A stretch of 32,000 nt of DNA from Erysipelotrichaceae bacterium OH741_COT-311 (GTDB lineage Bacteria; Bacillota_I; Bacilli_A; Erysipelotrichales; Erysipelotrichaceae): NCBI GenBank assembly GCA_003858585.1, contig RQZE01000003.1:1-32000 (forward strand), written 5' to 3'. Shown piece after piece: positions 2,877 to 29,634 of the stretch; position 1 is the first letter of the stretch, and each line of letters begins with the position of its first letter. The notes beneath the pieces were generated by a model. It saw only the letters and a program-made list of their open reading frames with translations. It had not been told where the DNA came from and ran no database searches. The translations under genes and the position numbers were made by a program.

Positions 2877-4967
2877 ATGGAAAAAGAACAAATATTAAAA
2901 GTTATTAAAGAAAATAAAAAAGAAGCTTATGATATTAAAGATTTAGCGTTGCTTTTAAATATGACAACGACAAGTGAATTTGTAAAGTTAAATAAACTTT
3001 TAAATCAATTGGTAGACGAATGTCTTATTTTTCAGACTGCGAAAAATAAGTTTGTGCCTGCTGAAACAGTAAAAATCGCAAAGGGTATCATTCGTATCAA
3101 CGCAAGAGGGGTAGGGTATGTAGATCTTAGTGAGGATGAATCGATTGTCTTTGATCCAAAGGATTTACATGGTGCCATGCATCTGGATGAAGTTTCTTAT
3201 CGCTATGATGATAGCCATCATGGAAAAGTAGTTAAGATTATTCATCGTAATTATAAATATGTTATAGGGACATTTTCAGCGAATCGTAAAGGTACACTTT
3301 TTTTCGATGCGGATGATAGAAAGATTCTTTCAAGATTTAAGATTTTGAATCAAAAGAAGTATCATTTAGTGGATGGATTGAAGGCTCAAGTAGAAATTGT
3401 AAGTTATGGGGATATGATACAGGCAAATATTGTATCGATTATAGGTCATAAAAATGATCCGGGTGTGGATATTAAAAGTATCTTGATGAGTTTTGATGTG
3501 GACTATGAATTTTCACAAGAGGTTTTACAGGAAGCCAATGCGATTAATCAAGTTGTGTCAGAACAAGAATATCAAGGACGAAGAGATTTAAGAGATATTT
3601 ATACATGTACCATTGATGGTGATGATGCGAAAGATTTTGATGATGCCATTAGTATTAGTAAAAGTGAATCCGGTTATAATCTAAAGGTTAGTATTGCGGA
3701 TGTTTCACATTATGTGAAAGAACATAGTCTCATGGATAAGGAAGCGTTTAAAAGAGGAAATAGTACGTATGTATTAGATCGTGTGGTTCCAATGCTTCCG
3801 CATGTGTTAAGTAATGGTATCTGTTCCTTAAATCCAAATGTAGATCGCTTAGCGATTACCTGTGATATGGATCTTGATGAACAGGGAAATGTTACAAATT
3901 ATCAATTATATCCATCGGTTATTAATTCCAATCATCGCATGACTTATCATCAAGTAAACCAGTTGTTAGATGGAATAGAAATTCAAGAGTATGAAGATAG
4001 TAAACATCATTTTATCTTAATGCAGGAATTAGCTTCTATTATTCAAAGGGTTCGTAAAAATGAAGGTGCGATTGACTTTGATAAGCAAGAAGCTGAGATT
4101 GTTCTGGATAATAAAGGAAAAGTCCTTGATGTCCATTTACGTATACGCAAGGGTGCGGAGCGTATGATTGAAAGTTTTATGATTTTAGCCAATGAAACGG
4201 TTGCGACACATTTACGTTGGTTAGAATATCCATGTCTATATCGTGTGCATGAACTTCCAAAGGAAGCTAAATTACGTCAATTTGTAAGTTTTGTTAATAT
4301 TTTAGGATATAAATTTAAAGGACATATTACAAATATTGATTCGGTCAGTTTACAACAATGTTTAGAGTTTTTTAAAGAAAAAGAAGAGTATCCGGTTGTT
4401 TCAACGTTAATGTTGCGCTCTATGACAAAGGCTCGTTATGATGCTTTACCTTTAGGGCATTATGGACTAGGTTTAGAAAACTATTGTCACTTTACTTCAC
4501 CAATACGTCGTTATGCCGATTTAATTGTACATCGTAGTTTAAGAAAGTATTGTTTTACGCAAGATTTTCATGATTTAGAAGCATTTCGTTTAAAGATGGA
4601 AGAGTATGGTCAACAAACAAGTAGTTGTGAGCGTAAAAGTGCAGATGCCGAATTTGCTGTGGTGGATTTAAAGAAATGTGAGTATATGAAACAACATTTA
4701 GGACAAGTCTTTAAAGGGGTTATCAGTTCGATTACTAAATTTGGTATGTATGTAGAACTTCCAAATACCATTGAGGGTCTTGTTCATGTAAAGGATTTAA
4801 ATGATGATCACTATAGTTATGTAGAGTCTTCCTTGATGCTTATTGGTCAAAGAACCAATAAAACTTATAAATTAGGTCAGCAAGTCATGGTAAAATGTGT
4901 AAGTGCAAACTTGGAAACTAGAACCATTGATTTTGTATTAGTAGAAAAACGTAGAGGTAATAAATGA
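2877..4967 (+). CDS. rnr: Ribonuclease R (3'-5' exoribonuclease)
   Basis: 696 aa; RNB catalytic motif DGDDAKDFDDAIS; HFTSPIRRYADLIVHR; C-terminal S1 domain (GVISSITKFGMYVELPNTIEGLVHV). Confidence 0.92.
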   Translation: MEKEQILKVIKENKKEAYDIKDLALLLNMTTTSEFVKLNKLLNQLVDECLIFQTAKNKFVPAETVKIAKGIIRINARGVGYVDLSEDESIVFDPKDLHGAMHLDEVSYRYDDSHHGKVVKIIHRNYKYVIGTFSANRKGTLFFDADDRKILSRFKILNQKKYHLVDGLKAQVEIVSYGDMIQANIVSIIGHKNDPGVDIKSILMSFDVDYEFSQEVLQEANAINQVVSEQEYQGRRDLRDIYTCTIDGDDAKDFDDAISISKSESGYNLKVSIADVSHYVKEHSLMDKEAFKRGNSTYVLDRVVPMLPHVLSNGICSLNPNVDRLAITCDMDLDEQGNVTNYQLYPSVINSNHRMTYHQVNQLLDGIEIQEYEDSKHHFILMQELASIIQRVRKNEGAIDFDKQEAEIVLDNKGKVLDVHLRIRKGAERMIESFMILANETVATHLRWLEYPCLYRVHELPKEAKLRQFVSFVNILGYKFKGHITNIDSVSLQQCLEFFKEKEEYPVVSTLMLRSMTKARYDALPLGHYGLGLENYCHFTSPIRRYADLIVHRSLRKYCFTQDFHDLEAFRLKMEEYGQQTSSCERKSADAEFAVVDLKKCEYMKQHLGQVFKGVISSITKFGMYVELPNTIEGLVHVKDLNDDHYSYVESSLMLIGQRTNKTYKLGQQVMVKCVSANLETRTIDFVLVEKRRGNK

Positions 4968-5416
4968 AAGAAAAAGTAATTGCCTTAAATCGTAAGGCTA
5001 GTCATGATTATTTTTTAGAAGATCGTTATGAAGCAGGTCTTGTTTTGGTGGGTACAGAAATAAAATCTGTGCGTTTGGGTAAGGTTCAATTTAAGGATAG
5101 TTATATTTCTTTTGTAAACAATGAAGCGTTTATTAAGGAAATGCATATTGCACAGTATGATTATGGTAATCAATTTAACCATGATGAAACAAGAATACGT
5201 AAGTTATTACTAAATAAAAGTGAATTGCGTAAACTGCAAAACAAAGTGAAATTAAAAGGTTATACGATTGTCCCAACGAAACTCTATCTTAAAAATGGTC
5301 GAGCGAAGATGGAGATTGCTTTGGCAAAAGGGAAAGCGTTATATGATAAACGTGAAGTTAGTAAGCAAAGAGATATTCAAAGACAATTGAATCGTGTTAT
5401 GAAAAATCACTTTTAA
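4964..5416 (+). CDS. smpB: SsrA-binding protein SmpB
   Basis: 150 aa; NRKASHDYFLEDRYEAGLVLVGTEIKS is a typical SmpB N-terminus. ATGA overlap with rnr. Confidence 0.93.
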   Translation: MKEKVIALNRKASHDYFLEDRYEAGLVLVGTEIKSVRLGKVQFKDSYISFVNNEAFIKEMHIAQYDYGNQFNHDETRIRKLLLNKSELRKLQNKVKLKGYTIVPTKLYLKNGRAKMEIALAKGKALYDKREVSKQRDIQRQLNRVMKNHF

Positions 5417-5429
5417 GAGTGATTTTTTA
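5402..5429 (+). terminator. Rho-independent terminator of smpB
   Basis: AAAAATCACT-TTTAAG-AGTGATTTTT hairpin spanning the smpB stop codon, followed by a T-run. Confidence 0.6.
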
Positions 5430-5523
5430 AATTGTGAATTATTATGGTTTTCATAACAAATAGAAGTGCGTTATAATTAGAATGACAATTTGTATTTTTT
5501 ATATAAATAAGGAGGATAGATTT

Positions 5524-8500
5524 ATGAAAAAGCTAAAGCTTACAAAAATCTTACTTACAATACTTTCAATGTTGTTGATGATTCCATATCAACTTACTTA
5601 TGCAAACAATGAATTGGAGGCTGTTGAAGTCATAACTTCAAAGGTTGTAAGTGATGATTTACTAGAAGCAACGATACATGTGGAAATCCGTCATGATGAT
5701 ACGGTTACCATACAATCAATTGAAAAGCCAAATGCAGAAGTAGAGGCTTACAATCAACAAGAAGTAACCTATCTTGTTAACGAAAATGGGGCATATACAT
5801 TTAAGGTTCATTATGTAAAAAATGATGCGTTAGATGTGATATTAACAAAAGAAGTTACGGTTGAAGTAAATGAAATTGAAGATATATCGTTTACAAATAT
5901 GTTTCCGGCTAATGTTGAAAATGGTAAAGGGATTCAAGTGAGTTTTAAAACACCAAAGGTAACGGAAGAGTTTGCCAATAATAACTTTGTAAATGCGATT
6001 GTTATTGATGGGGCAAATTTAGTACAAGATACTGCTGAAGATTTAACATTAGAAGTGAGCATTCCTGCATTATTATTTAAATATCCACAAAGTAATTTGG
6101 ATTCACAACATTTTATTGATCATTTTGCAGTTGTTACAGGAAATGTTGGGAAAGTGTTAGAAACAGTTGAAGATCTTGCTACAAACACAACTACCATTCG
6201 TGTGAAATTAAACCGTGTAACTAGAACAACAAGAATTGAAATGCCATTTAATTTTAGTTTTACTGATCGTATTACACCACTTGATTTGCGCCTTGCACCA
6301 TCTGTTAAAGTGGTAAATGCAGATAATGCAGTGTTATCAAATGCAACGGATGTTGAATATCAAGTGAAGTATGAAGAACGTACAGCGATTAAAAAGATAT
6401 ATGGTTCGAAAGAAAATGGTGCTTTAGTACCGGCAGGGACTGCCTTGGCAGGAAATCCTAATTATGTAGATCCAGATAATGCAGAATATGTCATGTTTAC
6501 TTATGATTATGAATATGGTAAAGGTGCTCAGCCTCCTGCTCGTTTAGATGAAAAGGTAGTGATTACCGATCGTTTACCGGAGTATGTAAACCATGAAGGA
6601 CAAACAGTGAAGGCTCACTTTAACCCTGCATTAAATCCCGGATGGACAAAGAAGCCAGATGGTAGTGTAGAATATACAGTGAATTTAGATAAATCATTGT
6701 ATGTTGGAGATATACGAAAAATTGATATTCGTGAACAAATCAGTCAAGTTACATTATTCTTATCATTTCCTGGTGCTCCAGTGAAGGAAGGTGGAGCTCT
6801 TAAAAACTATGTTAACAATGTAAGTATGAGTGTTACAGGGATTAATGGGGCAACAGAAACACCAAAAGTGTTAACAGATGATATTACGTTTAACTTAGAA
6901 GCAAAGCCAAATGGTGGAAAAGGAATGTTTTCAAAGTATAATATCTTTGATCGTATTCCATATGATCCCTATAGTTTATATGCAGAAGTATTACGTTTCG
7001 GTATGCATGCTACGAATAACTTAACTTCTGATTTAACAGATTTCAAAATAGTAGAAGATGCGACAAAATTTGATTCACGTTTATATTTTTCAAAAGTAGT
7101 GAATGTCAAAGAAGGTGAACGTGATGTTTCAAATGAGTATCAAGTAAAAGCTTATAGAACAGATGGTACTTTTACAATCTTTGAAATTGGTAGTGAGTTA
7201 AATGGTGCAACGCAAGCCAAAATTAATGATTATGCAAATCAAGTAAACAATGGTAGCTTGGTGATTGCTGATGTGCCAAATGATGCTGTAGTAGAGTATG
7301 TTAAGTTTGAAATTGGACGTAAAGACAATGCGCCATTAAAATCAGGGGCTACAGTGATACAAACAGAAGTAGAAATGCGCTTTAAAAATCCATTTCATGT
7401 TCAAGGAACTTTAAATTCAAGAGATATTCGTAATGAAGCAAGCTTAGTTGGAAACTATAAAGATGTTTCGAATACAGTAAAATCAATAAAAGTAGATTCT
7501 TATGCTGCAAAATTGTTTATACCAGTAGATGAAAAAGTAGTATTAATAAAATCTACAAATCAAGGAAATGCAACTAAAATTAATGATACAATTAATATCT
7601 TTAATATCTCGTTAGATTTGAGAGACTTAAGTAAGAACCGATTGATTAAAGATGGTACATTTATTGATTTATTACCGGCAGGGTTATCTACGATTGGTAC
7701 AACATATGTAATGCCACTGAATAATAGTAATCCTTATTTTAAAGGATATGAAATTATTAAAGATTATAAAGGTACAGGAAGAGATGCCATTAAGATTAAT
7801 CTAAATACATTTAGAATGAAAGATCTTAAAACAACAAACGGAAGGACACCTTATGCGTTAGATTTTGCGATTCGAAACATTAAAATCAATGATAAGATCA
7901 TTCCAACTTCAGCAGAAACACCCACAAACAACAATGATAACCATGTGTATTTCTTTGAAGGAAATGGACAAAGTTTCCCGGATAGCATTGGTTCACAACA
8001 AAAAGTAGTTGATACATTGGACATCAATGATAATGGTAAAACAGATGATTTTATTTTAGAAGCGACTTCAAAAGTTGTGGCACAAGTTCCAAGTCTAGTA
8101 CGTAGTAATAAGTATATTCGTTCTATAGAAGGGTCAACAATCAATGATTCGGTGGATGAAACTCGTCCTTGGACAGATCGTATTATGACAAATTATGATA
8201 GTGGAGTAAGTGGTGGACGCTTCCAATATAAATTAGAAGTGAAAAATTATACAGCAACTCCAACAGAAGGCATAGTGCTTTATGATGTTATTCCAAATGT
8301 AAATGATAAGAAGAGTGATGGTACTCCTAGAAATAGTGCGTTTAGAAATCGTTTAGTTGCACCATTAAGAATTGAAATAGATGGTATTGATGTATCAGCA
8401 GATTATGATATTTTCTATACAATAGATGCACCGGCTTATGATGCAACAACAGGTGTTCCAACTTCAAATTGGCAATTGGCAGTCGCTAATTATGAAGATG

Positions 8501-9138
8501 TTAAAGCGATAAAAGTTGTATTAAAACCGGGTAAATCATTGCCAGCCTTTAAGATTTTAAATGTCATTATGGATATGAAGGCACCTAAGTATGAAAATAC
8601 CTCTTTAGCAAATACAGAAGCAATTGGTAGTTTTCAAGTTATCTATGATGGCTCTGTAGCTTATGCGGAAGCAGACATGGTTTACAATGCGCTTCCGGAC
8701 ATTAGAAATATAACTGTAAAAAAAGAGTGGATTAACGCTACTGCACAAAAGATTATAGTGGATTTGTTACAAAATAATGTTGTAATCGCTACAAAAGAAT
8801 TATTAGAAACAGAAACAACATTAGTCTTTGAACATTTACCGATTAATGATCCAACAGGTATTCCATTTGCCTATCGTGTTGTTGAAAGATCTCTTCCTGG
8901 GTTTAAAACAACGTATGAAGGGGATATTGAAACAGGTATTGTTATCAAAAATGAAAAGGCAAAACCTGTAAATCCTAATGTACATCCAAATCCTCCGATA
9001 GCTACACCAAAGAAACAAGTAAGGATTAAGATACCAAAAACACAAGATAACAGTGTACCATATTTTTATGGTATGATGGCAATGCTTTCAATGGTAGTAT
9101 TGCTTGTAATGAAAAAAACATTAAAAAATCATAAATAA
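5524..9138 (+). CDS. Large cell-surface protein (adhesin-like) with signal peptide, C-terminal CnaB-type domain and a sortase-type anchoring signal
   Basis: - AAGGAGG RBS lies 8 nt before the ATG at 5524.
- Signal peptide MKKLKLTKILLTILSMLLMIPYQLTYA.
- About 1100 aa of beta-rich sequence.
- CnaB-like segment ITVKKEWINA...FAYRVVERSLPGFKTTYEG...IVIKNEK (about 8707-8960).
- Pro-rich stalk, then IPKTQD + hydrophobic stretch + KKTLKNHK tail. Confidence 0.85.
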   Translation: MKKLKLTKILLTILSMLLMIPYQLTYANNELEAVEVITSKVVSDDLLEATIHVEIRHDDTVTIQSIEKPNAEVEAYNQQEVTYLVNENGAYTFKVHYVKNDALDVILTKEVTVEVNEIEDISFTNMFPANVENGKGIQVSFKTPKVTEEFANNNFVNAIVIDGANLVQDTAEDLTLEVSIPALLFKYPQSNLDSQHFIDHFAVVTGNVGKVLETVEDLATNTTTIRVKLNRVTRTTRIEMPFNFSFTDRITPLDLRLAPSVKVVNADNAVLSNATDVEYQVKYEERTAIKKIYGSKENGALVPAGTALAGNPNYVDPDNAEYVMFTYDYEYGKGAQPPARLDEKVVITDRLPEYVNHEGQTVKAHFNPALNPGWTKKPDGSVEYTVNLDKSLYVGDIRKIDIREQISQVTLFLSFPGAPVKEGGALKNYVNNVSMSVTGINGATETPKVLTDDITFNLEAKPNGGKGMFSKYNIFDRIPYDPYSLYAEVLRFGMHATNNLTSDLTDFKIVEDATKFDSRLYFSKVVNVKEGERDVSNEYQVKAYRTDGTFTIFEIGSELNGATQAKINDYANQVNNGSLVIADVPNDAVVEYVKFEIGRKDNAPLKSGATVIQTEVEMRFKNPFHVQGTLNSRDIRNEASLVGNYKDVSNTVKSIKVDSYAAKLFIPVDEKVVLIKSTNQGNATKINDTINIFNISLDLRDLSKNRLIKDGTFIDLLPAGLSTIGTTYVMPLNNSNPYFKGYEIIKDYKGTGRDAIKINLNTFRMKDLKTTNGRTPYALDFAIRNIKINDKIIPTSAETPTNNNDNHVYFFEGNGQSFPDSIGSQQKVVDTLDINDNGKTDDFILEATSKVVAQVPSLVRSNKYIRSIEGSTINDSVDETRPWTDRIMTNYDSGVSGGRFQYKLEVKNYTATPTEGIVLYDVIPNVNDKKSDGTPRNSAFRNRLVAPLRIEIDGIDVSADYDIFYTIDAPAYDATTGVPTSNWQLAVANYEDVKAIKVVLKPGKSLPAFKILNVIMDMKAPKYENTSLANTEAIGSFQVIYDGSVAYAEADMVYNALPDIRNITVKKEWINATAQKIIVDLLQNNVVIATKELLETETTLVFEHLPINDPTGIPFAYRVVERSLPGFKTTYEGDIETGIVIKNEKAKPVNPNVHPNPPIATPKKQVRIKIPKTQDNSVPYFYGMMAMLSMVVLLVMKKTLKNHK

Positions 9139-9164
9139 AAAATCCCTTTTTTAAGGGATTTTTT
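9138..9164 (+). terminator. Rho-independent terminator of the surface-protein gene
   Basis: AAAAATCCCTT-TTTT-AAGGGATTTTT, symmetric with an A-run and a T-run, so potentially bidirectional. Confidence 0.65.
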
Positions 9165-9219
9165 AGAACCTAAATAGAACCTAAATAGAACCTAAATAGA
9201 ACCTAAATAGAACCTAAAA
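9165..9219. repeat. 11-bp tandem repeat AGAACCTAAAT x5 (four perfect copies; the fifth ends in A)
   Basis: Read directly: five head-to-tail units at 9165, 9176, 9187, 9198 and 9209. They are followed by TGGTTC, an inverted match to the GAACC core. Confidence 0.95.
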
Positions 9220-9230
9220 TGGTTCGAGCA

Positions 9231-9256
9231 TTAAAAAAGCCTTTACATAAAGGCTT
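9231..9256 (-). terminator. Rho-independent terminator of ssrA
   Basis: On the minus strand, 11 nt after the tmRNA CCA end: AAGCCTTT-ATGT-AAAGGCTT followed by TTTTTAAT. Confidence 0.65.
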
Positions 9257-9267
9257 AATAAGTATCT

Positions 9268-9612
9268 TGGTGGAGATGAGGGGTATCGAACCCCTGTCCA
9301 AGAATAGTCCCACACTTAGACGTCTACAGTTTAGCTTTTCGTTAAGTAAGACAATAGAATGGTCAAAAGCCAACCGCTATTGAATTTGTCTATGATATTT
9401 TCGTGTCACTAACTAGACAATTAGTTTTCCTTATCCTATATAAATGTACACCTTACCTTTTGTATAGGCACAATCGGTTTGGGGGCTGCAAGCCTCTATT
9501 GGCTAATTAAGCAGCGAAACTTAATCTGTTTCCAGTTATTTTTATTTGGTTTTAGGTGACCAACCACTGCAATCTAAGTCAAACATAAACCTGTCGAATC
9601 CAAGACATCCCC
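9268..9612 (-). ncRNA. ssrA: tmRNA (SsrA), one-piece, about 345 nt
   Basis: - The minus strand reads 5'-GGGGATGTCTTGGATTCGACAGG ... GGACAGGGGTTCGATACCCCTCATCTCCACCA-3'.
- Acceptor stem GGGGATG/CATCTCC contains the G3:U alanine identity pair.
- It has a T-arm and an encoded CCA.
- Internal tag frame: GGA AAC AGA TTA AGT TTC GCT GCT TAA. Confidence 0.93.
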
Positions 9613-27455: not shown

Positions 27456-27477
27456 ATCAAAATTATTGATGTATAAT
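27456..27477 (+). promoter_or_regulatory. Candidate promoter -10 (TATAAT, 27472-27477) preceded by a 7-1-7 inverted repeat ATCAAAA-T-TATTGAT (27456-27470)
   Basis: The inverted repeat matches at 6 of 7 positions per arm and has Fur-family box geometry. It sits directly upstream of the COG0523 gene. AT-rich context makes a chance match plausible. Confidence 0.3.
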
Positions 27478-27502
27478 AGTAGTATTGAAAAGAGGGAAAA
27501 GT

Positions 27503-28699
27503 ATGAAAGTAAGTATTATTTCAGGATTTTTGGGTGCTGGGAAAACAACGTTAATTTCAAAGTTGATTTCCGAGCAACTTTATAAAGAAAAGGTTGTATT
27601 AATTGAGAATGAATTTGGTGAAATTGGTATTGATGGAGGTTTCTTGAAAGAAGCTGGGATTGATATTAAAGAAATGAATTCCGGTTGTATTTGTTGTAGT
27701 TTACAAGGAGATTTTAAAGAAGCCTTGCAAAAAGTGATTGATACCTATCATCCAGAACACATCATTATTGAACCAAGTGGAGTTGGTAAATTAAGTGATG
27801 TTGCAAAGGCTGTAAAAGAAATAGAAGATTTAAAAGTAAATACATTAACAACCGTGATAGATTGTAAAAAAGCAGTTGTGTATTCAAAAAACTTTAAAGA
27901 GTTTTATGATGATCAAATTATACATGCAAGTTGTATTATTTTGAGTCGTAGTCAAGATGTTACACAAGAAAAGTTGGAAGAGGTTATTGCATTACTTAGA
28001 AGTAAAAATGCACACGCACCAATTATTACAACAAATTGGGAAGAATTAAGTGCAAATGATATTTTAAGTGTAATGGATCAAACTTATACTCTAAAAGTTA
28101 AAACATCTAAAGATTATGATACATGTGAGGGAGAAGAATGCTGTTGCCATCATGAACATGATCACAAGCATGGAGAATGCTGTTGCCATCATGAACATGA
28201 TTACGAGCATGAAGAATGCTGTTGCCATCATGAACATGATCACAAGCATGAAGAGTGTTGTTGCCATCATGAACATGATCACAAGCATGAAGAATGCTGT
28301 TGCCATCATGAACATGATCACGAGCATGAAGAATGCTGTTGCCACCATGGACATGATCACGATCATGAAGAATGCTGTTGCCACCATGAACATGATCACA
28401 AGCATGAAGAGTGTTGTTGTCACCACCATCATGCAGAAGATGTCTTTAAGAGTGTTGGTTTTGAAACTGTAAATAAGTATGATAAGTTTCAATTAAATGC
28501 AATTTTATCAAATCTTGATGATTCTATCTTAAGATGTAAGGGAATTGTTTCTGGTGTTGATGGTAATTGGTGGCATTTTGATTATGTACCTGATGAGTTT
28601 GAAATTCGTAAAGGCTCTTCAAATTATACGGGTTTAATTACAGTTATCGGAAAAGATTTTGATGAAAAGAAAGTGAAAGAAATCTTTGGGGTCAAATAA
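27503..28699 (+). CDS. COG0523-family G3E GTPase (CobW/ZigA/YciC-like metallochaperone) with a giant Cys/His repeat insert
   Basis: - AGAGGG RBS before the ATG at 27503.
- Walker A GFLGAGKTT.
- Diagnostic CxCC motif GCICCS (27685-27696).
- IIIEPSG Walker B.
- 103-aa Cys/His-rich insert.
- CobW_C-like C-terminus (LRCKGIVSG...LITVIGKDF). Confidence 0.88.
   Translation: MKVSIISGFLGAGKTTLISKLISEQLYKEKVVLIENEFGEIGIDGGFLKEAGIDIKEMNSGCICCSLQGDFKEALQKVIDTYHPEHIIIEPSGVGKLSDVAKAVKEIEDLKVNTLTTVIDCKKAVVYSKNFKEFYDDQIIHASCIILSRSQDVTQEKLEEVIALLRSKNAHAPIITTNWEELSANDILSVMDQTYTLKVKTSKDYDTCEGEECCCHHEHDHKHGECCCHHEHDYEHEECCCHHEHDHKHEECCCHHEHDHKHEECCCHHEHDHEHEECCCHHGHDHDHEECCCHHEHDHKHEECCCHHHHAEDVFKSVGFETVNKYDKFQLNAILSNLDDSILRCKGIVSGVDGNWWHFDYVPDEFEIRKGSSNYTGLITVIGKDFDEKKVKEIFGVK
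28133..28432 (+). repeat. 39-bp in-frame tandem repeat, about 7.7 copies, encoding EECCCHHEHDHKH units
   Basis: Units start at 28133, 28172, 28211, 28250, 28289, 28328, 28367 and 28406. Copies 1 and 3 are identical; the others differ by 1-5 substitutions, several of them synonymous. Confidence 0.95.
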
Positions 28700-29634
28700 T
28701 GCCGGTTTTAGTGTATTTAGTAACGGGATTTTTAGATAGTGGAAAGACCAGTTTGATTAAAGAGACTTTAATGGATAAAGAGTTTAATCATGGTGAAAAA
28801 AACTTAATCATTAGTTTTGAACAAGGAGAAGTAGAATACGAAGAAGCATTTTTAAAACAAACCAATAGTGAAGTTGTTTATGTCGATGATGTAGAACTTT
28901 TTACAGAGGAATTAATGCATGAATATGATACAGTATATCAACCTAAAACAGTTATTATTGAGTTTAATGGGTTAAGTAATGTGACAGAATTTGTTCAACG
29001 TAAGATGATTCCGGGATGGATGATTGTACAGGTTTTAACGACTATTGATGCAAGTACATTTAATGTGTATATTGCAAATATGAAGTCTATTATTTATGAA
29101 CAAATACGTTATTCAGATTTAATTATTTGTAATCGTTGTAATGAAGATACCGATTTGGATTATATGCGTCGTAATCTAAAGGCTTGTAATATGGCTTGTC
29201 AGATTGTTTATGAAGATGAGCAGAACAACATTATTCCGTTTAATCCAAGTAAGCTTGTTTTTAAAGAAGAAGATGGTATGATTCATGTTAAGGATGAAGA
29301 TTTTGGTTTATGGTATATGGATGCCCTAGATCATCCTGAACATTATGAAAATAAACGTATACGTATTAAAGGGATGTATGCTTCAAAGATTGACGGTTAT
29401 AAAAAATCGTTTGTCTTGGGACGTTATGCTATGGTATGTTGTGCTGATGATACGGCTTTAATTGGACTTACAGTAACAGGAGTTAAATTAGATGAATTAA
29501 CTTTGCATCAATGGGTTAGTGTAGAAGGTGTGATTCATTTGGTAGATGCTGAACATGGTAAGGTTTGTGTGTTATATGCTGAAAAGATTTACCATGATCA
29601 CCCAATAGAAAATCCATTTGTGTATTTTAGTTAA
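28699..29634 (+). CDS. Degenerate G3E-like P-loop protein lacking CxCC, fused to a C-terminal CC-A-D-D domain (DUF1980/YcgQ-like by recollection)
   Basis: - TAATG overlap with the upstream gene.
- Walker A-like GFLDSGKTS and VIIEFNG.
- No CxCC at the aligned position (EQGEVEYEE).
- C-terminal FVLGRYAMVCCADDTALIGLTV...WVSVEGV...ENPFVYFS. Confidence 0.65.
   Translation: MPVLVYLVTGFLDSGKTSLIKETLMDKEFNHGEKNLIISFEQGEVEYEEAFLKQTNSEVVYVDDVELFTEELMHEYDTVYQPKTVIIEFNGLSNVTEFVQRKMIPGWMIVQVLTTIDASTFNVYIANMKSIIYEQIRYSDLIICNRCNEDTDLDYMRRNLKACNMACQIVYEDEQNNIIPFNPSKLVFKEEDGMIHVKDEDFGLWYMDALDHPEHYENKRIRIKGMYASKIDGYKKSFVLGRYAMVCCADDTALIGLTVTGVKLDELTLHQWVSVEGVIHLVDAEHGKVCVLYAEKIYHDHPIENPFVYFS

Follow-up and report, generated by a model that had tools for sequence, protein, structure and literature searches.

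The window analyzed here, a 32,000-nucleotide stretch of the genome of Erysipelotrichaceae bacterium OH741_COT-311 (contig RQZE01000003.1, positions 1 to 32,000), carries a gene for a COG0523-family G3E P-loop nucleoside triphosphatase (NTPase), hereafter gene 1, whose two folded domains are joined by a linker that is exceptionally rich in cysteine and histidine and is encoded by a 39-bp in-frame tandem repeat. From the sequence and by analogy with characterized relatives, we consider that this array is probably a disordered arm with many thiolate and imidazole ligands that would store metal on a chaperone GTPase, and possibly gate it according to load, with a capacity set by the number of repeat units. 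The features of gene 1 on which this reading is built are as follows.

27503 to 28699, plus strand: gene 1, COG0523-family G3E P-loop NTPase of 398 amino acids that bears the Cys/His array (open reading frame, Pfam, match to YjiA, family alignment)
27509 to 28027, plus strand: nucleotide-binding (G) domain, residues 3 to 175 (Pfam PF02492, cobW, 2e-38)
27686 to 27697, plus strand: CxCC motif C62-I-C64-C65, a conserved site at which COG0523 proteins bind metal with high affinity (sequence, alignment)
28124 to 28432, plus strand: Cys/His-rich interdomain linker, residues 208 to 310, 103 amino acids (composition, disorder in an AlphaFold2 model)
28133 to 28419, with the eighth unit extending to 28432, plus strand: 39-bp in-frame tandem repeat of seven EECCCHHEHDHKH units and a truncated eighth (Tandem Repeats Finder, unit table)
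28445 to 28687, plus strand: CobW_C domain, residues 315 to 395 (Pfam PF07683, 4e-06, 27 bits against a cutoff of 22)

The repeat array and its host protein

Tandem Repeats Finder reported a single dominant array at 28133-28419, with a period of 39, 7.4 copies, 92% matches, 0% indels, a score of 483, and the consensus GAAGAATGCTGTTGCCATCATGAACATGATCACAAGCAT. When the units were cut in register from 28133, each of units 1 to 7 was 0 to 4 bases off the consensus, units 1 and 3 showed no base difference between them, and the mean pairwise difference was ∼2.8 of 39 bases, i.e., ∼93% identity. A 287-bp run of 39-bp units that are alike to this degree is far beyond chance. The array is in frame with the open reading frame at 27485/27503-28699, for which ATG 27503 was taken as the start; this codon is preceded by a GAGGG ribosome-binding site, and the resulting N terminus (MKVSIISGFLGAGKT) aligns with those of all relatives. 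Within the linker, 25 Cys and 38 His together make up 61% of the 103 residues (24% for Cys), the remainder being Glu, Asp, Lys, and Gly; the tally was made on 107 residues, of which the extra DYDT contributes no Cys or His. Behind each of the eight Cys3 clusters come four or five His, amid acidic residues, and the eight units together offer 63 Cys and His ligands.

Much of this anatomy had already been claimed in a sequence-only reading of the window, made by a model without database searches. Its figure of about 60% Cys and His agrees with our recount, its near-perfect 39-bp in-frame repeat with the Tandem Repeats Finder result, and its identical copies 1 and 3 with the unit table, while Pfam and the match to YjiA bear out its placement of the array between the nucleotide-binding domain and the CobW_C domain of a COG0523-type G3E protein. 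The eight CCC-HH-x-H-x-H-x-H units that it described need correction, as only seven are full: the eighth (28406-28432) retains the first 27 bases only and encodes EECCCHHHH, and in unit 2 one His is replaced by Tyr. Two long open reading frames that it had dismissed as spurious are indeed periodic and lie wholly inside gene 1, as entered in the open reading frame list:

28091 to 28492, minus strand: spurious open reading frame of 133 amino acids (MATAFF...), a periodic antisense reading of the repeat
28116 to 28472, plus strand: spurious open reading frame of 118 amino acids, a periodic reading of the repeat in another frame (NAVAIMNMITSM)

The protein that carries the array has the features by which COG0523 members are recognized, namely, a CobW/HypB/UreG domain with Walker A and GCxCC motifs and a CobW_C domain with an RxKG motif. 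In a family alignment of 25 relatives that are 54 to 64% identical (alignment A1), Walker A (GFLGAGKTT, residues 8 to 16), ENEFGE, Walker B (IIIEPSG), and G61-C62-I63-C64-C65 (GCICC) were all invariant, as were R344, K346, and G347 of the motif R344-C-K346-G347 (28532-28543) within CobW_C. The nearest solved structure was Escherichia coli YjiA (1nij; E value of 1e-18), whose own GCICC pairs with that of gene 1.

An AlphaFold2 model of gene 1, built on the family alignment, gave predicted local distance difference test (pLDDT) values of 80 to 95 for the G domain, except in the switch loops, and of 83 to 91 for CobW_C. Residues 194 to 312 had values below 50 and no secondary structure, and formed the sole long unconfident stretch between the two confident domains. 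The array is predicted on this basis to be a disordered tether, at least without metal. At its end, the linker passes from a His run into A-[DE]-[DE]-V-F-x-S-x-G-x-E-T, in which A311, F315, S317, G319, and T322 were invariant in A1. This boundary (28421-28450, residues 307 to 316) is conserved while everything upstream of it in the linker varies, and by analogy with the PETEEY motif of ZigA it may contact the G domain.

Copy number, substitution pattern, and related linkers

The closest public relatives of the window locus were a Logan contig (L001) and an Erysipelotrichaceae metagenome-assembled genome (MAG; GCA_030532865.1, L002). Both share with the window the gene order malQ, COG0523 gene, partner gene, ogt, and uppP, and outside the array their coding sequence is 94% (N-terminal part) and 97 to 99% (C-terminal part) identical to that of the window. 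Inside the array, 8 CCC units were counted in the window, 6 in L001, and 3 in L002, all in assemblies of unknown read type. The alleles differ by whole 39-bp units, the truncated last unit is identical in the three, and each keeps the reading frame and the same first and last context. Since the units are ∼93% identical and near-identical alleles differ by whole units, the comparison supports a recent expansion of the array by slippage or recombination. The sequence-only reading had proposed such an expansion from the window alone and had expected copy number to vary between strains, and the series of 8, 6, and 3 units in close relatives speaks for both, with the caveat that it comes from assemblies. 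A contingency (phase-variable) locus was rejected, as 39 bp is a multiple of three and the 8-, 6-, and 3-unit alleles are all in frame.

This caveat touches the possibility that the array is an assembly artifact, in which short reads collapsed or inflated the array or its copy number and the 8/6/3 series would merely reflect assemblers. It would fit with such an origin that the nearest relatives are a short-read-derived Logan contig and a MAG, that look-up of the exact 8-unit protein product matched no database record, and that in one further MAG (L023) unknown or masked bases fall exactly in the linker repeat of the COG0523 gene, so that such arrays can evidently break assemblies or be masked. 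(A search of the plasmid collection gave no match.) However, the longest exact repeat inside the window array is 40 bp and nearly every unit has substitutions of its own, and hence reads of 100 to 150 bp, or k-mers longer than 41, can order the units. In addition, no allele of the three has lost its frame or its flanking context, and similar arrays were present in hundreds of independent assemblies, including the complete isolate genomes of Bengtsoniella intestinalis, Alloiococcus sp., and Sporofaciens musculi. We therefore regard an artifact as unlikely.

The substitutions within the array are not spread evenly over its codons. When the 14 full units of the three alleles were pooled, Cys/His positions had changed in 2 of 112 cells compared to 13 of 70 cells for the spacers, and the ratio of synonymous to nonsynonymous codon changes was 15:2 at Cys/His codons and 3:13 at spacer codons; as the units share ancestry and are not independent samples, the corresponding Fisher values (∼1e-4) are descriptive. 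At the sequence level, this is the pattern expected from purifying selection on the ligand residues, unlike that of a neutral low-complexity tract.

To place the linker among its relatives, all 1.84 billion cluster representatives of a protein collection were read, which yielded 17,105 relatives at an E value of <1e-3 and 793 at <1e-30. Among the matches listed in the protein database, the linker was Cys-containing and His-rich in 120 of 120 relatives. Many of these linkers were periodic but built from differing units, such as CCCHHEHHDHDDEE (3 to 6 copies between near-identical sequences), CCCGHDHHHEHDEE (7 copies), CCHHEHHHDEE (8 copies), CECGHHHHEHEEE, ECHHDHDHEH, and ECGCGHDHDHEHHHHEHDHE. 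A genome scan with one genome per species returned 80 loci, hosted by Clostridia (Lachnospiraceae, Oscillospiraceae, Ruminococcus, Faecalibacterium, Gemmiger, and others) and Erysipelotrichales (Traorella, Catenibacterium, and Solobacterium). All complete genes among them encoded His-rich linkers, usually with CxC, CC, or CCC, and a few were purely His. In a screen that retained only periods that are multiples of three, 71 of 83 genes had an in-frame DNA tandem repeat in the linker, with 26 different periods between 18 and 126 bp and up to 97% matches. Given this number of periods, the composition of the linker is conserved while the sequence of the repeat turns over, and the repeat appears to have been reinvented lineage by lineage.

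Within this range, the window allele (25 Cys, 8 CCC) appears as the Cys-rich extreme of a continuum. Only one other linker with at least 15 Cys was found among the best 150 representatives (20 Cys, HHHHEHEGECCG, ∼10 copies), and at least three CCC occurred there only in the cluster representing the window's own group. The sequence-only reading had not recognized a Cys3-His5 module of this kind as described. Its judgment holds for the Cys3 density, which looks undescribed, but not for the periodicity, as periodic Cys/His linkers are the rule in a large clade of Clostridia and Erysipelotrichales. The array alone (103 amino acids), when run against a database of 5.8 billion proteins to look for the module beyond COG0523, shared words with 877 candidates, none of which scored, presumably because of composition correction. 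One relative of 472 amino acids (P0015) has ∼100 residues of its G domain, from CxCC to Walker B (A1 columns 101 to 200), in tandem duplicate, either in reality or by misassembly.

The clade also bears on whether the linker might be a neutral low-complexity spacer, i.e., slippage-prone DNA tolerated between two domains and devoid of a metal function. Linker length and sequence vary enormously among lineages and the region is predicted to be disordered, both as a neutral spacer would have it. A tolerated spacer would not, however, explain why the changes at Cys and His codons are mostly silent and those at spacer codons mostly alter the residue, why the composition throughout the clade is always His with Cys and Asp/Glu and never, for example, Ser/Gly/Pro, or why the HHHH-A-[DE]-[DE]-V-F boundary is conserved; moreover, characterized relatives bind metal with such regions (PMC11340326, PMC2770081). 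Of all explanations weighed here, we hold this to be the least likely.

The partner gene and genomic context

Gene 1 is followed by an overlapping, conserved partner gene that the sequence-only reading had overlooked, and is preceded by a palindrome:

28699 to 29634, plus strand: gene 2, partner protein of 311 amino acids with a G3E-like P-loop domain and a DUF1980_C domain at residues 191 to 309 (Pfam, homologues, model)
27456 to 27470, no strand assigned: imperfect 7-1-7 palindrome ATCAAAATTATTGAT (one mismatch), which abuts TATAAT at 27472-27477, upstream of the two-gene module

The ATG of gene 2 overlaps the stop codon of gene 1 (TAATG). Pfam assigned cobW (8e-15) and DUF1980_C (PF21537, 2e-17) domains to its product, which has the P-loop GFLDSGKT, lacks CxCC, and contains an MVCCADD motif (29431-29451) whose M-V-C-C-x-x-D was invariant in an alignment of its homologues (A2). 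Among 529 homologues, all of the best 120 had the same two-domain architecture; in the source databases, they are named "GTP-binding protein," "hypothetical protein," or "TIGR03943 family putative permease subunit." In an AlphaFold2 model (pLDDT of 85), the N-terminal domain matched YjiA, HypB, UreG, and signal recognition particle GTPases, and the best solved matches of the C-terminal beta-barrel were oligonucleotide/oligosaccharide-binding (OB) folds (PriB, E value of 1e-4). The NCBIfam model TIGR03943 scored 71.9 against a cutoff of 88.8 and covered the C-terminal half alone. Like the DUF1980/YcgQ/TIGR03943 proteins, gene 2 thus has a C-terminal domain that matches PF21537 and carries CC..D, but unlike them its N-terminal part is a soluble G3E-like P-loop domain, and "permease subunit" is probably a misnomer for this architecture. 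Literature searches on cobW plus DUF1980 and on TIGR03943/YcgQ found nothing relevant.

In 76 of 82 loci, the COG0523 gene was immediately followed by a DUF1980_C-like gene. By strict detection, which demanded a P-loop open reading frame of 308 to 336 amino acids with the CC..D motif, from 40 bases before to 150 bases after the stop codon, the partner was recovered at 55 of 85 loci, and in many of these it overlaps the preceding stop codon. By these sequence comparisons, the conserved unit across Clostridia and Erysipelotrichales is the gene pair, with varying flanks, and the coupling and co-conservation of the two genes suggest that the gene 1 product probably works with its partner. Culturable carriers of the module include Bengtsoniella intestinalis BP47G, Sporofaciens musculi, Gemmiger formicilis, Butyricicoccus pullicaecorum, Ruminococcus flavefaciens, and a Bulleidia or Amedibacillus isolate.

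The window itself is an ordinary chromosomal segment of a Firmicute with a G+C content of 32%. Its gene order begins with an iron-type alcohol dehydrogenase (Fe-ADH), a YbaK-like editing protein, a NUDIX protein, RNase R, SmpB, a Cna_B surface protein, and transfer-messenger RNA (tmRNA); continues with a two-component system and an ATP-binding cassette (ABC)/FtsX transporter, glycogen phosphorylase, LacI, amylases, a maltodextrin ABC transporter, and MalQ; and ends with the two-gene module followed by Ogt and UppP. The trans-translation genes form a cluster at 2877-9612, comprising RNase R (2877-4967), SmpB (4964-5416), and tmRNA (9268-9612, minus strand, 124 bits), and the Cna_B-domain surface protein of 1,218 amino acids (5482-9138) is encoded between the latter two. 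tmRNA was the sole Rfam match in the window, with nothing near gene 1.

The palindrome ATCAAAATTATTGAT occurs once in the window, looser matches being at chance level. L001 and L002 have the identical palindrome, but it is missing ahead of the module in other lineages, and it may be a lineage-specific operator or promoter element. A promoter and terminator scan yielded no more sites than shuffled sequence. Many Oscillospiraceae/Ruminococcus loci (L013, L025, L029, L031, L036, L052, L065, L066, and L067) have a different palindrome of the type TTGCATTTT(T)CG(G)AAAAA over the -35 region of the module promoter, which may be a shared operator for a regulator in that branch.

With respect to metal-related neighbors, no zinc genes were found within the window or in five other loci examined, and a Fur-family neighbor was present within the flanks of one locus only (L075). 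In one Erysipelotrichaceae lineage (L083, 10158-12918), the module lies beside a CopA-type P-type ATPase and a CsoR-family (Trns_repr_metal) repressor on the opposite strand, an arrangement that was not seen in the other lineages examined. A distant clade member of 481 amino acids (P0372) has a complete FUR domain fused ahead of cobW and CobW_C according to Pfam. The fusion may be genuine or may result from two genes having been called as one; in both cases a metalloregulator sits directly upstream of a clade member, and FUR::cobW::CobW_C hints at, but no more than hints at, a connection with a Fur-family metalloregulator.

Proposed function and known systems

We propose that in an Erysipelotrichaceae-like, low-G+C anaerobe a 39-bp unit was amplified in frame to about seven and a half copies, which would have created the ∼100-residue segment. 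This arm would capture several divalent metal ions, hold them close to the conserved CxCC in the G domain, and thereby act as a local metal reservoir or buffer. Because it tethers CobW_C, the bearer of the RxKG finger, it might also gate nucleotide hydrolysis according to metal load. By analogy, Zn(II) would be the likeliest metal from family precedent, with Ni(II) and Co(II) fitting Hpn/SlyD-like chemistry equally well. Capacity would scale with unit number; 8 to 16 ions is a guess from ligand counts and four-coordinate sites. Unit number would shift via replication slippage or unequal recombination between units, with selection retaining the Cys/His positions and the reading frame, and the two-gene operon would have the gene 1 protein made together with its G3E-like/DUF1980_C partner. 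Both the identity of the metal and the storage or gating role are what we infer from characterized systems.

Several points weigh against this reading, in addition to the origin of the copy numbers in assemblies and the shared ancestry of the units. Metal binding by the array is argued from its composition and from analogy. In the G domain, the G4 motif [NT]KxD is not present: SRSQ (residues 148 to 151, 27944-27955) stands opposite TKTD of YjiA, and within the clade this position reads S[RK][ST][QDEGA], with the guanine-recognizing Asp often missing. Nucleotide preference is hence uncertain, and the enzyme may not be GTP specific; membership in COG0523 does not hinge on the G4 motif alone. Furthermore, no characterized subfamily fits gene 1, as the NCBIfam models for CobW, ZigA, PRK11537, and HypB all scored far under their cutoffs, so that no characterized subfamily's function can be borrowed. 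Around the module, the window contains no Zur-type box, no riboswitch, no metal transporter, and no Fur-family gene. The flanking genes differ in every lineage examined, five lineages sharing the two-gene module alone, and thus neither metal nor client can be read from the context. Finally, no operator common to the lineages emerged from a scan for 7-1-7 palindromes in the upstream regions of 80 loci or from scans with several geometries of six Erysipelotrichales loci; since no box is shared, Zur control is neither claimed nor excluded.

The individual assignments were rejected as follows. A ZigA, YciC-ZagA, or YeiR equivalog was discarded on scores of 78.6 bits against a cutoff of 600 (NCBIfam ZigA) and 76.4 against 361 (PRK11537). 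A CobW (cobalamin) equivalog reached 83 bits against 332 for TIGR02475, and no cob genes or B12 riboswitch were found nearby; a HypB/UreG nickel GTPase reached 19.6 bits against 121 for TIGR00073, and no hyp or ure genes were found in the loci examined. A metallothionein was rejected as the Cys-rich segment sits inside a 398-amino-acid NTPase and is not a small free-standing protein.

Two other functional readings were considered. In the first, the array would mainly be a sensor or gate: metal would fold the linker and control access of the arginine finger, and unit number would tune a threshold instead of a capacity, a role that is compatible with a store. RxKG, which is invariant in A1, has recently been reported as an arginine-finger "self-GAP" (GTPase-activating protein) motif of ZigA and MigC, through which their C-terminal domain stimulates GTP hydrolysis, and in ZigA the Zn-stimulated hydrolysis of GTP is gated by the linker, which lies folded across CxCC (PMC13001444). 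A further precedent is CobW2, which is reported to alternate between closed and open forms that hold ∼0.5 and ∼7 Zn, respectively (PMC11340326). A gate should need fewer than 63 potential ligands, however, and should not tolerate a range of 3 to 8 units between close relatives. We give a predominantly gating role a small but appreciable chance.

In the second, the array would be a sink that, like a metallothionein, detoxifies thiophilic ions (Cd, Cu(I), Hg, or Zn in excess); alternatively, it would be an element with a redox or Fe-S role, and in neither case a supply arm. The Cys content of the linker and its triplets, which recall metallothioneins, are in line with a sink, as is the location of the module beside the CopA-type ATPase and CsoR-family repressor in one lineage. 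Yet that neighborhood is not conserved, the window contains no linked efflux or resistance genes, many relatives have few or no linker Cys, and the array is always part of an NTPase that retains its own CxCC and a GAP-like domain. A sink or redox element is in our estimation very unlikely, and the metal reservoir on a chaperone GTPase remains the preferred reading.

COG0523 proteins, with their variable linkers, are the least understood metallochaperones. The clade described here, whose sequences are present unannotated in public databases by the hundred, provides a natural series in which linker chemistry (from His only to Cys3-His5), unit length, and copy number vary while the folded domains are 55 to 65% identical, so that linker function becomes directly testable by comparison. 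Should capacity depend on copy number, gut anaerobes would have a genetically simple way of adjusting to the metal supply, or to the withholding of metal by the host, through repeats that vary from strain to strain. The conserved pairing also points DUF1980_C, labeled "permease subunit" in some databases, toward metal handling. More tentatively, and with rather less confidence than in the reservoir itself, we suggest that the COG0523 protein and its overlapping OB-like DUF1980_C/CC..D partner could constitute an undescribed two-protein metal-handling system specific to anaerobic Firmicutes, in which tandem duplication would in effect have built a metallothionein-like thiolate/imidazole store into the chaperone, and a rapidly evolving unit number would set the metal capacity of each strain in the gut, much like a dial.

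Inserts with repetitive metal ligands between the two domains of COG0523 proteins are already known. Repetitive His-rich inserts at this position have been described since 2009 to 2012: ∼40% of COG0523 proteins have His stretches, which were read as a mark of chaperones or storage (Haas et al. 2009, PMC2770081), and 77% of cyanobacterial COG0523 proteins have repetitive HHX/HXH inserts of up to 70 amino acids (PMC3323870). Such inserts contain up to 29 His and were proposed as a metallochaperone hallmark of a family called "segmentally variable" (PMC2770081, PMC3323870). The His stretch of HypB, for comparison, allows 18 Ni to be bound per dimer (PMC2770081). The window linker shares with the COG0523 inserts its repetitive metal-ligand character and its interdomain position, whereas the published inserts are rich in His only and the window linker has 25 Cys as eight triplets, near-identical DNA units, and copy-number differences between alleles. 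A literature search on Cys-rich COG0523 linkers found nothing relevant; the version for which the literature found has no counterpart is the periodic Cys3-His5 array with about one-quarter Cys, near-identical DNA units, allelic copy-number differences, and an obligate G3E-DUF1980_C partner. That strict anaerobes use so much Cys, compared to His only in the aerobes described, might be explained by thiols being safe in an anoxic cytoplasm.

CobW2 of Cupriavidus metallidurans has an internal His-rich random coil, binds ∼6 to 7 Zn per chain with low affinity, and was interpreted as a zinc store or buffer (PMC11340326). It resembles gene 1 as a COG0523 protein with a large, ligand-rich internal region predicted to be a random coil. 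In contrast to gene 1, CobW2 belongs to an aerobic betaproteobacterium, is Zur regulated, uses His ligands only, has no reported tandem DNA repeat, and lacks a G3E-DUF1980_C partner; for the window gene, the upstream scans revealed no Zur site.

The C-terminal tail of E. coli SlyD, which follows a prolyl isomerase, carries GCCGG and GCGCH motifs. SlyD and Hpn of Helicobacter pylori share with the window array short acidic CC/His stretches, which in these two proteins bind and store several Ni/Zn ions and either are attached to G3E-type maturation systems or serve them. In the Hpn segment EEGCCHGHHE, CC followed by His is a strong Zn/Ni anchor, stronger than His alone (PMC10221980; for Hpn peptides, see also PMC5312948). 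Hpn is, however, a free protein of 60 amino acids and the SlyD tail is C terminal, and neither forms a long, near-perfect Cys-triplet array within a GTPase.

ZigA, ZagA, and ZNG1 have the same two-domain COG0523 architecture as gene 1, with the CxCC site and the C-terminal RxKG. The linker of ZigA contains a conserved PETEEY motif, whereas that of the window gene contains the array, and no Zur box or known client was found for the latter.

Bacterial metallothioneins (SmtA/BmtA) hold several Zn by means of dense Cys with His, and are small independent proteins, each folded around one cluster. The window array, known from sequence alone, is like them in Cys/His density and differs from them in being a periodic insert inside an NTPase.

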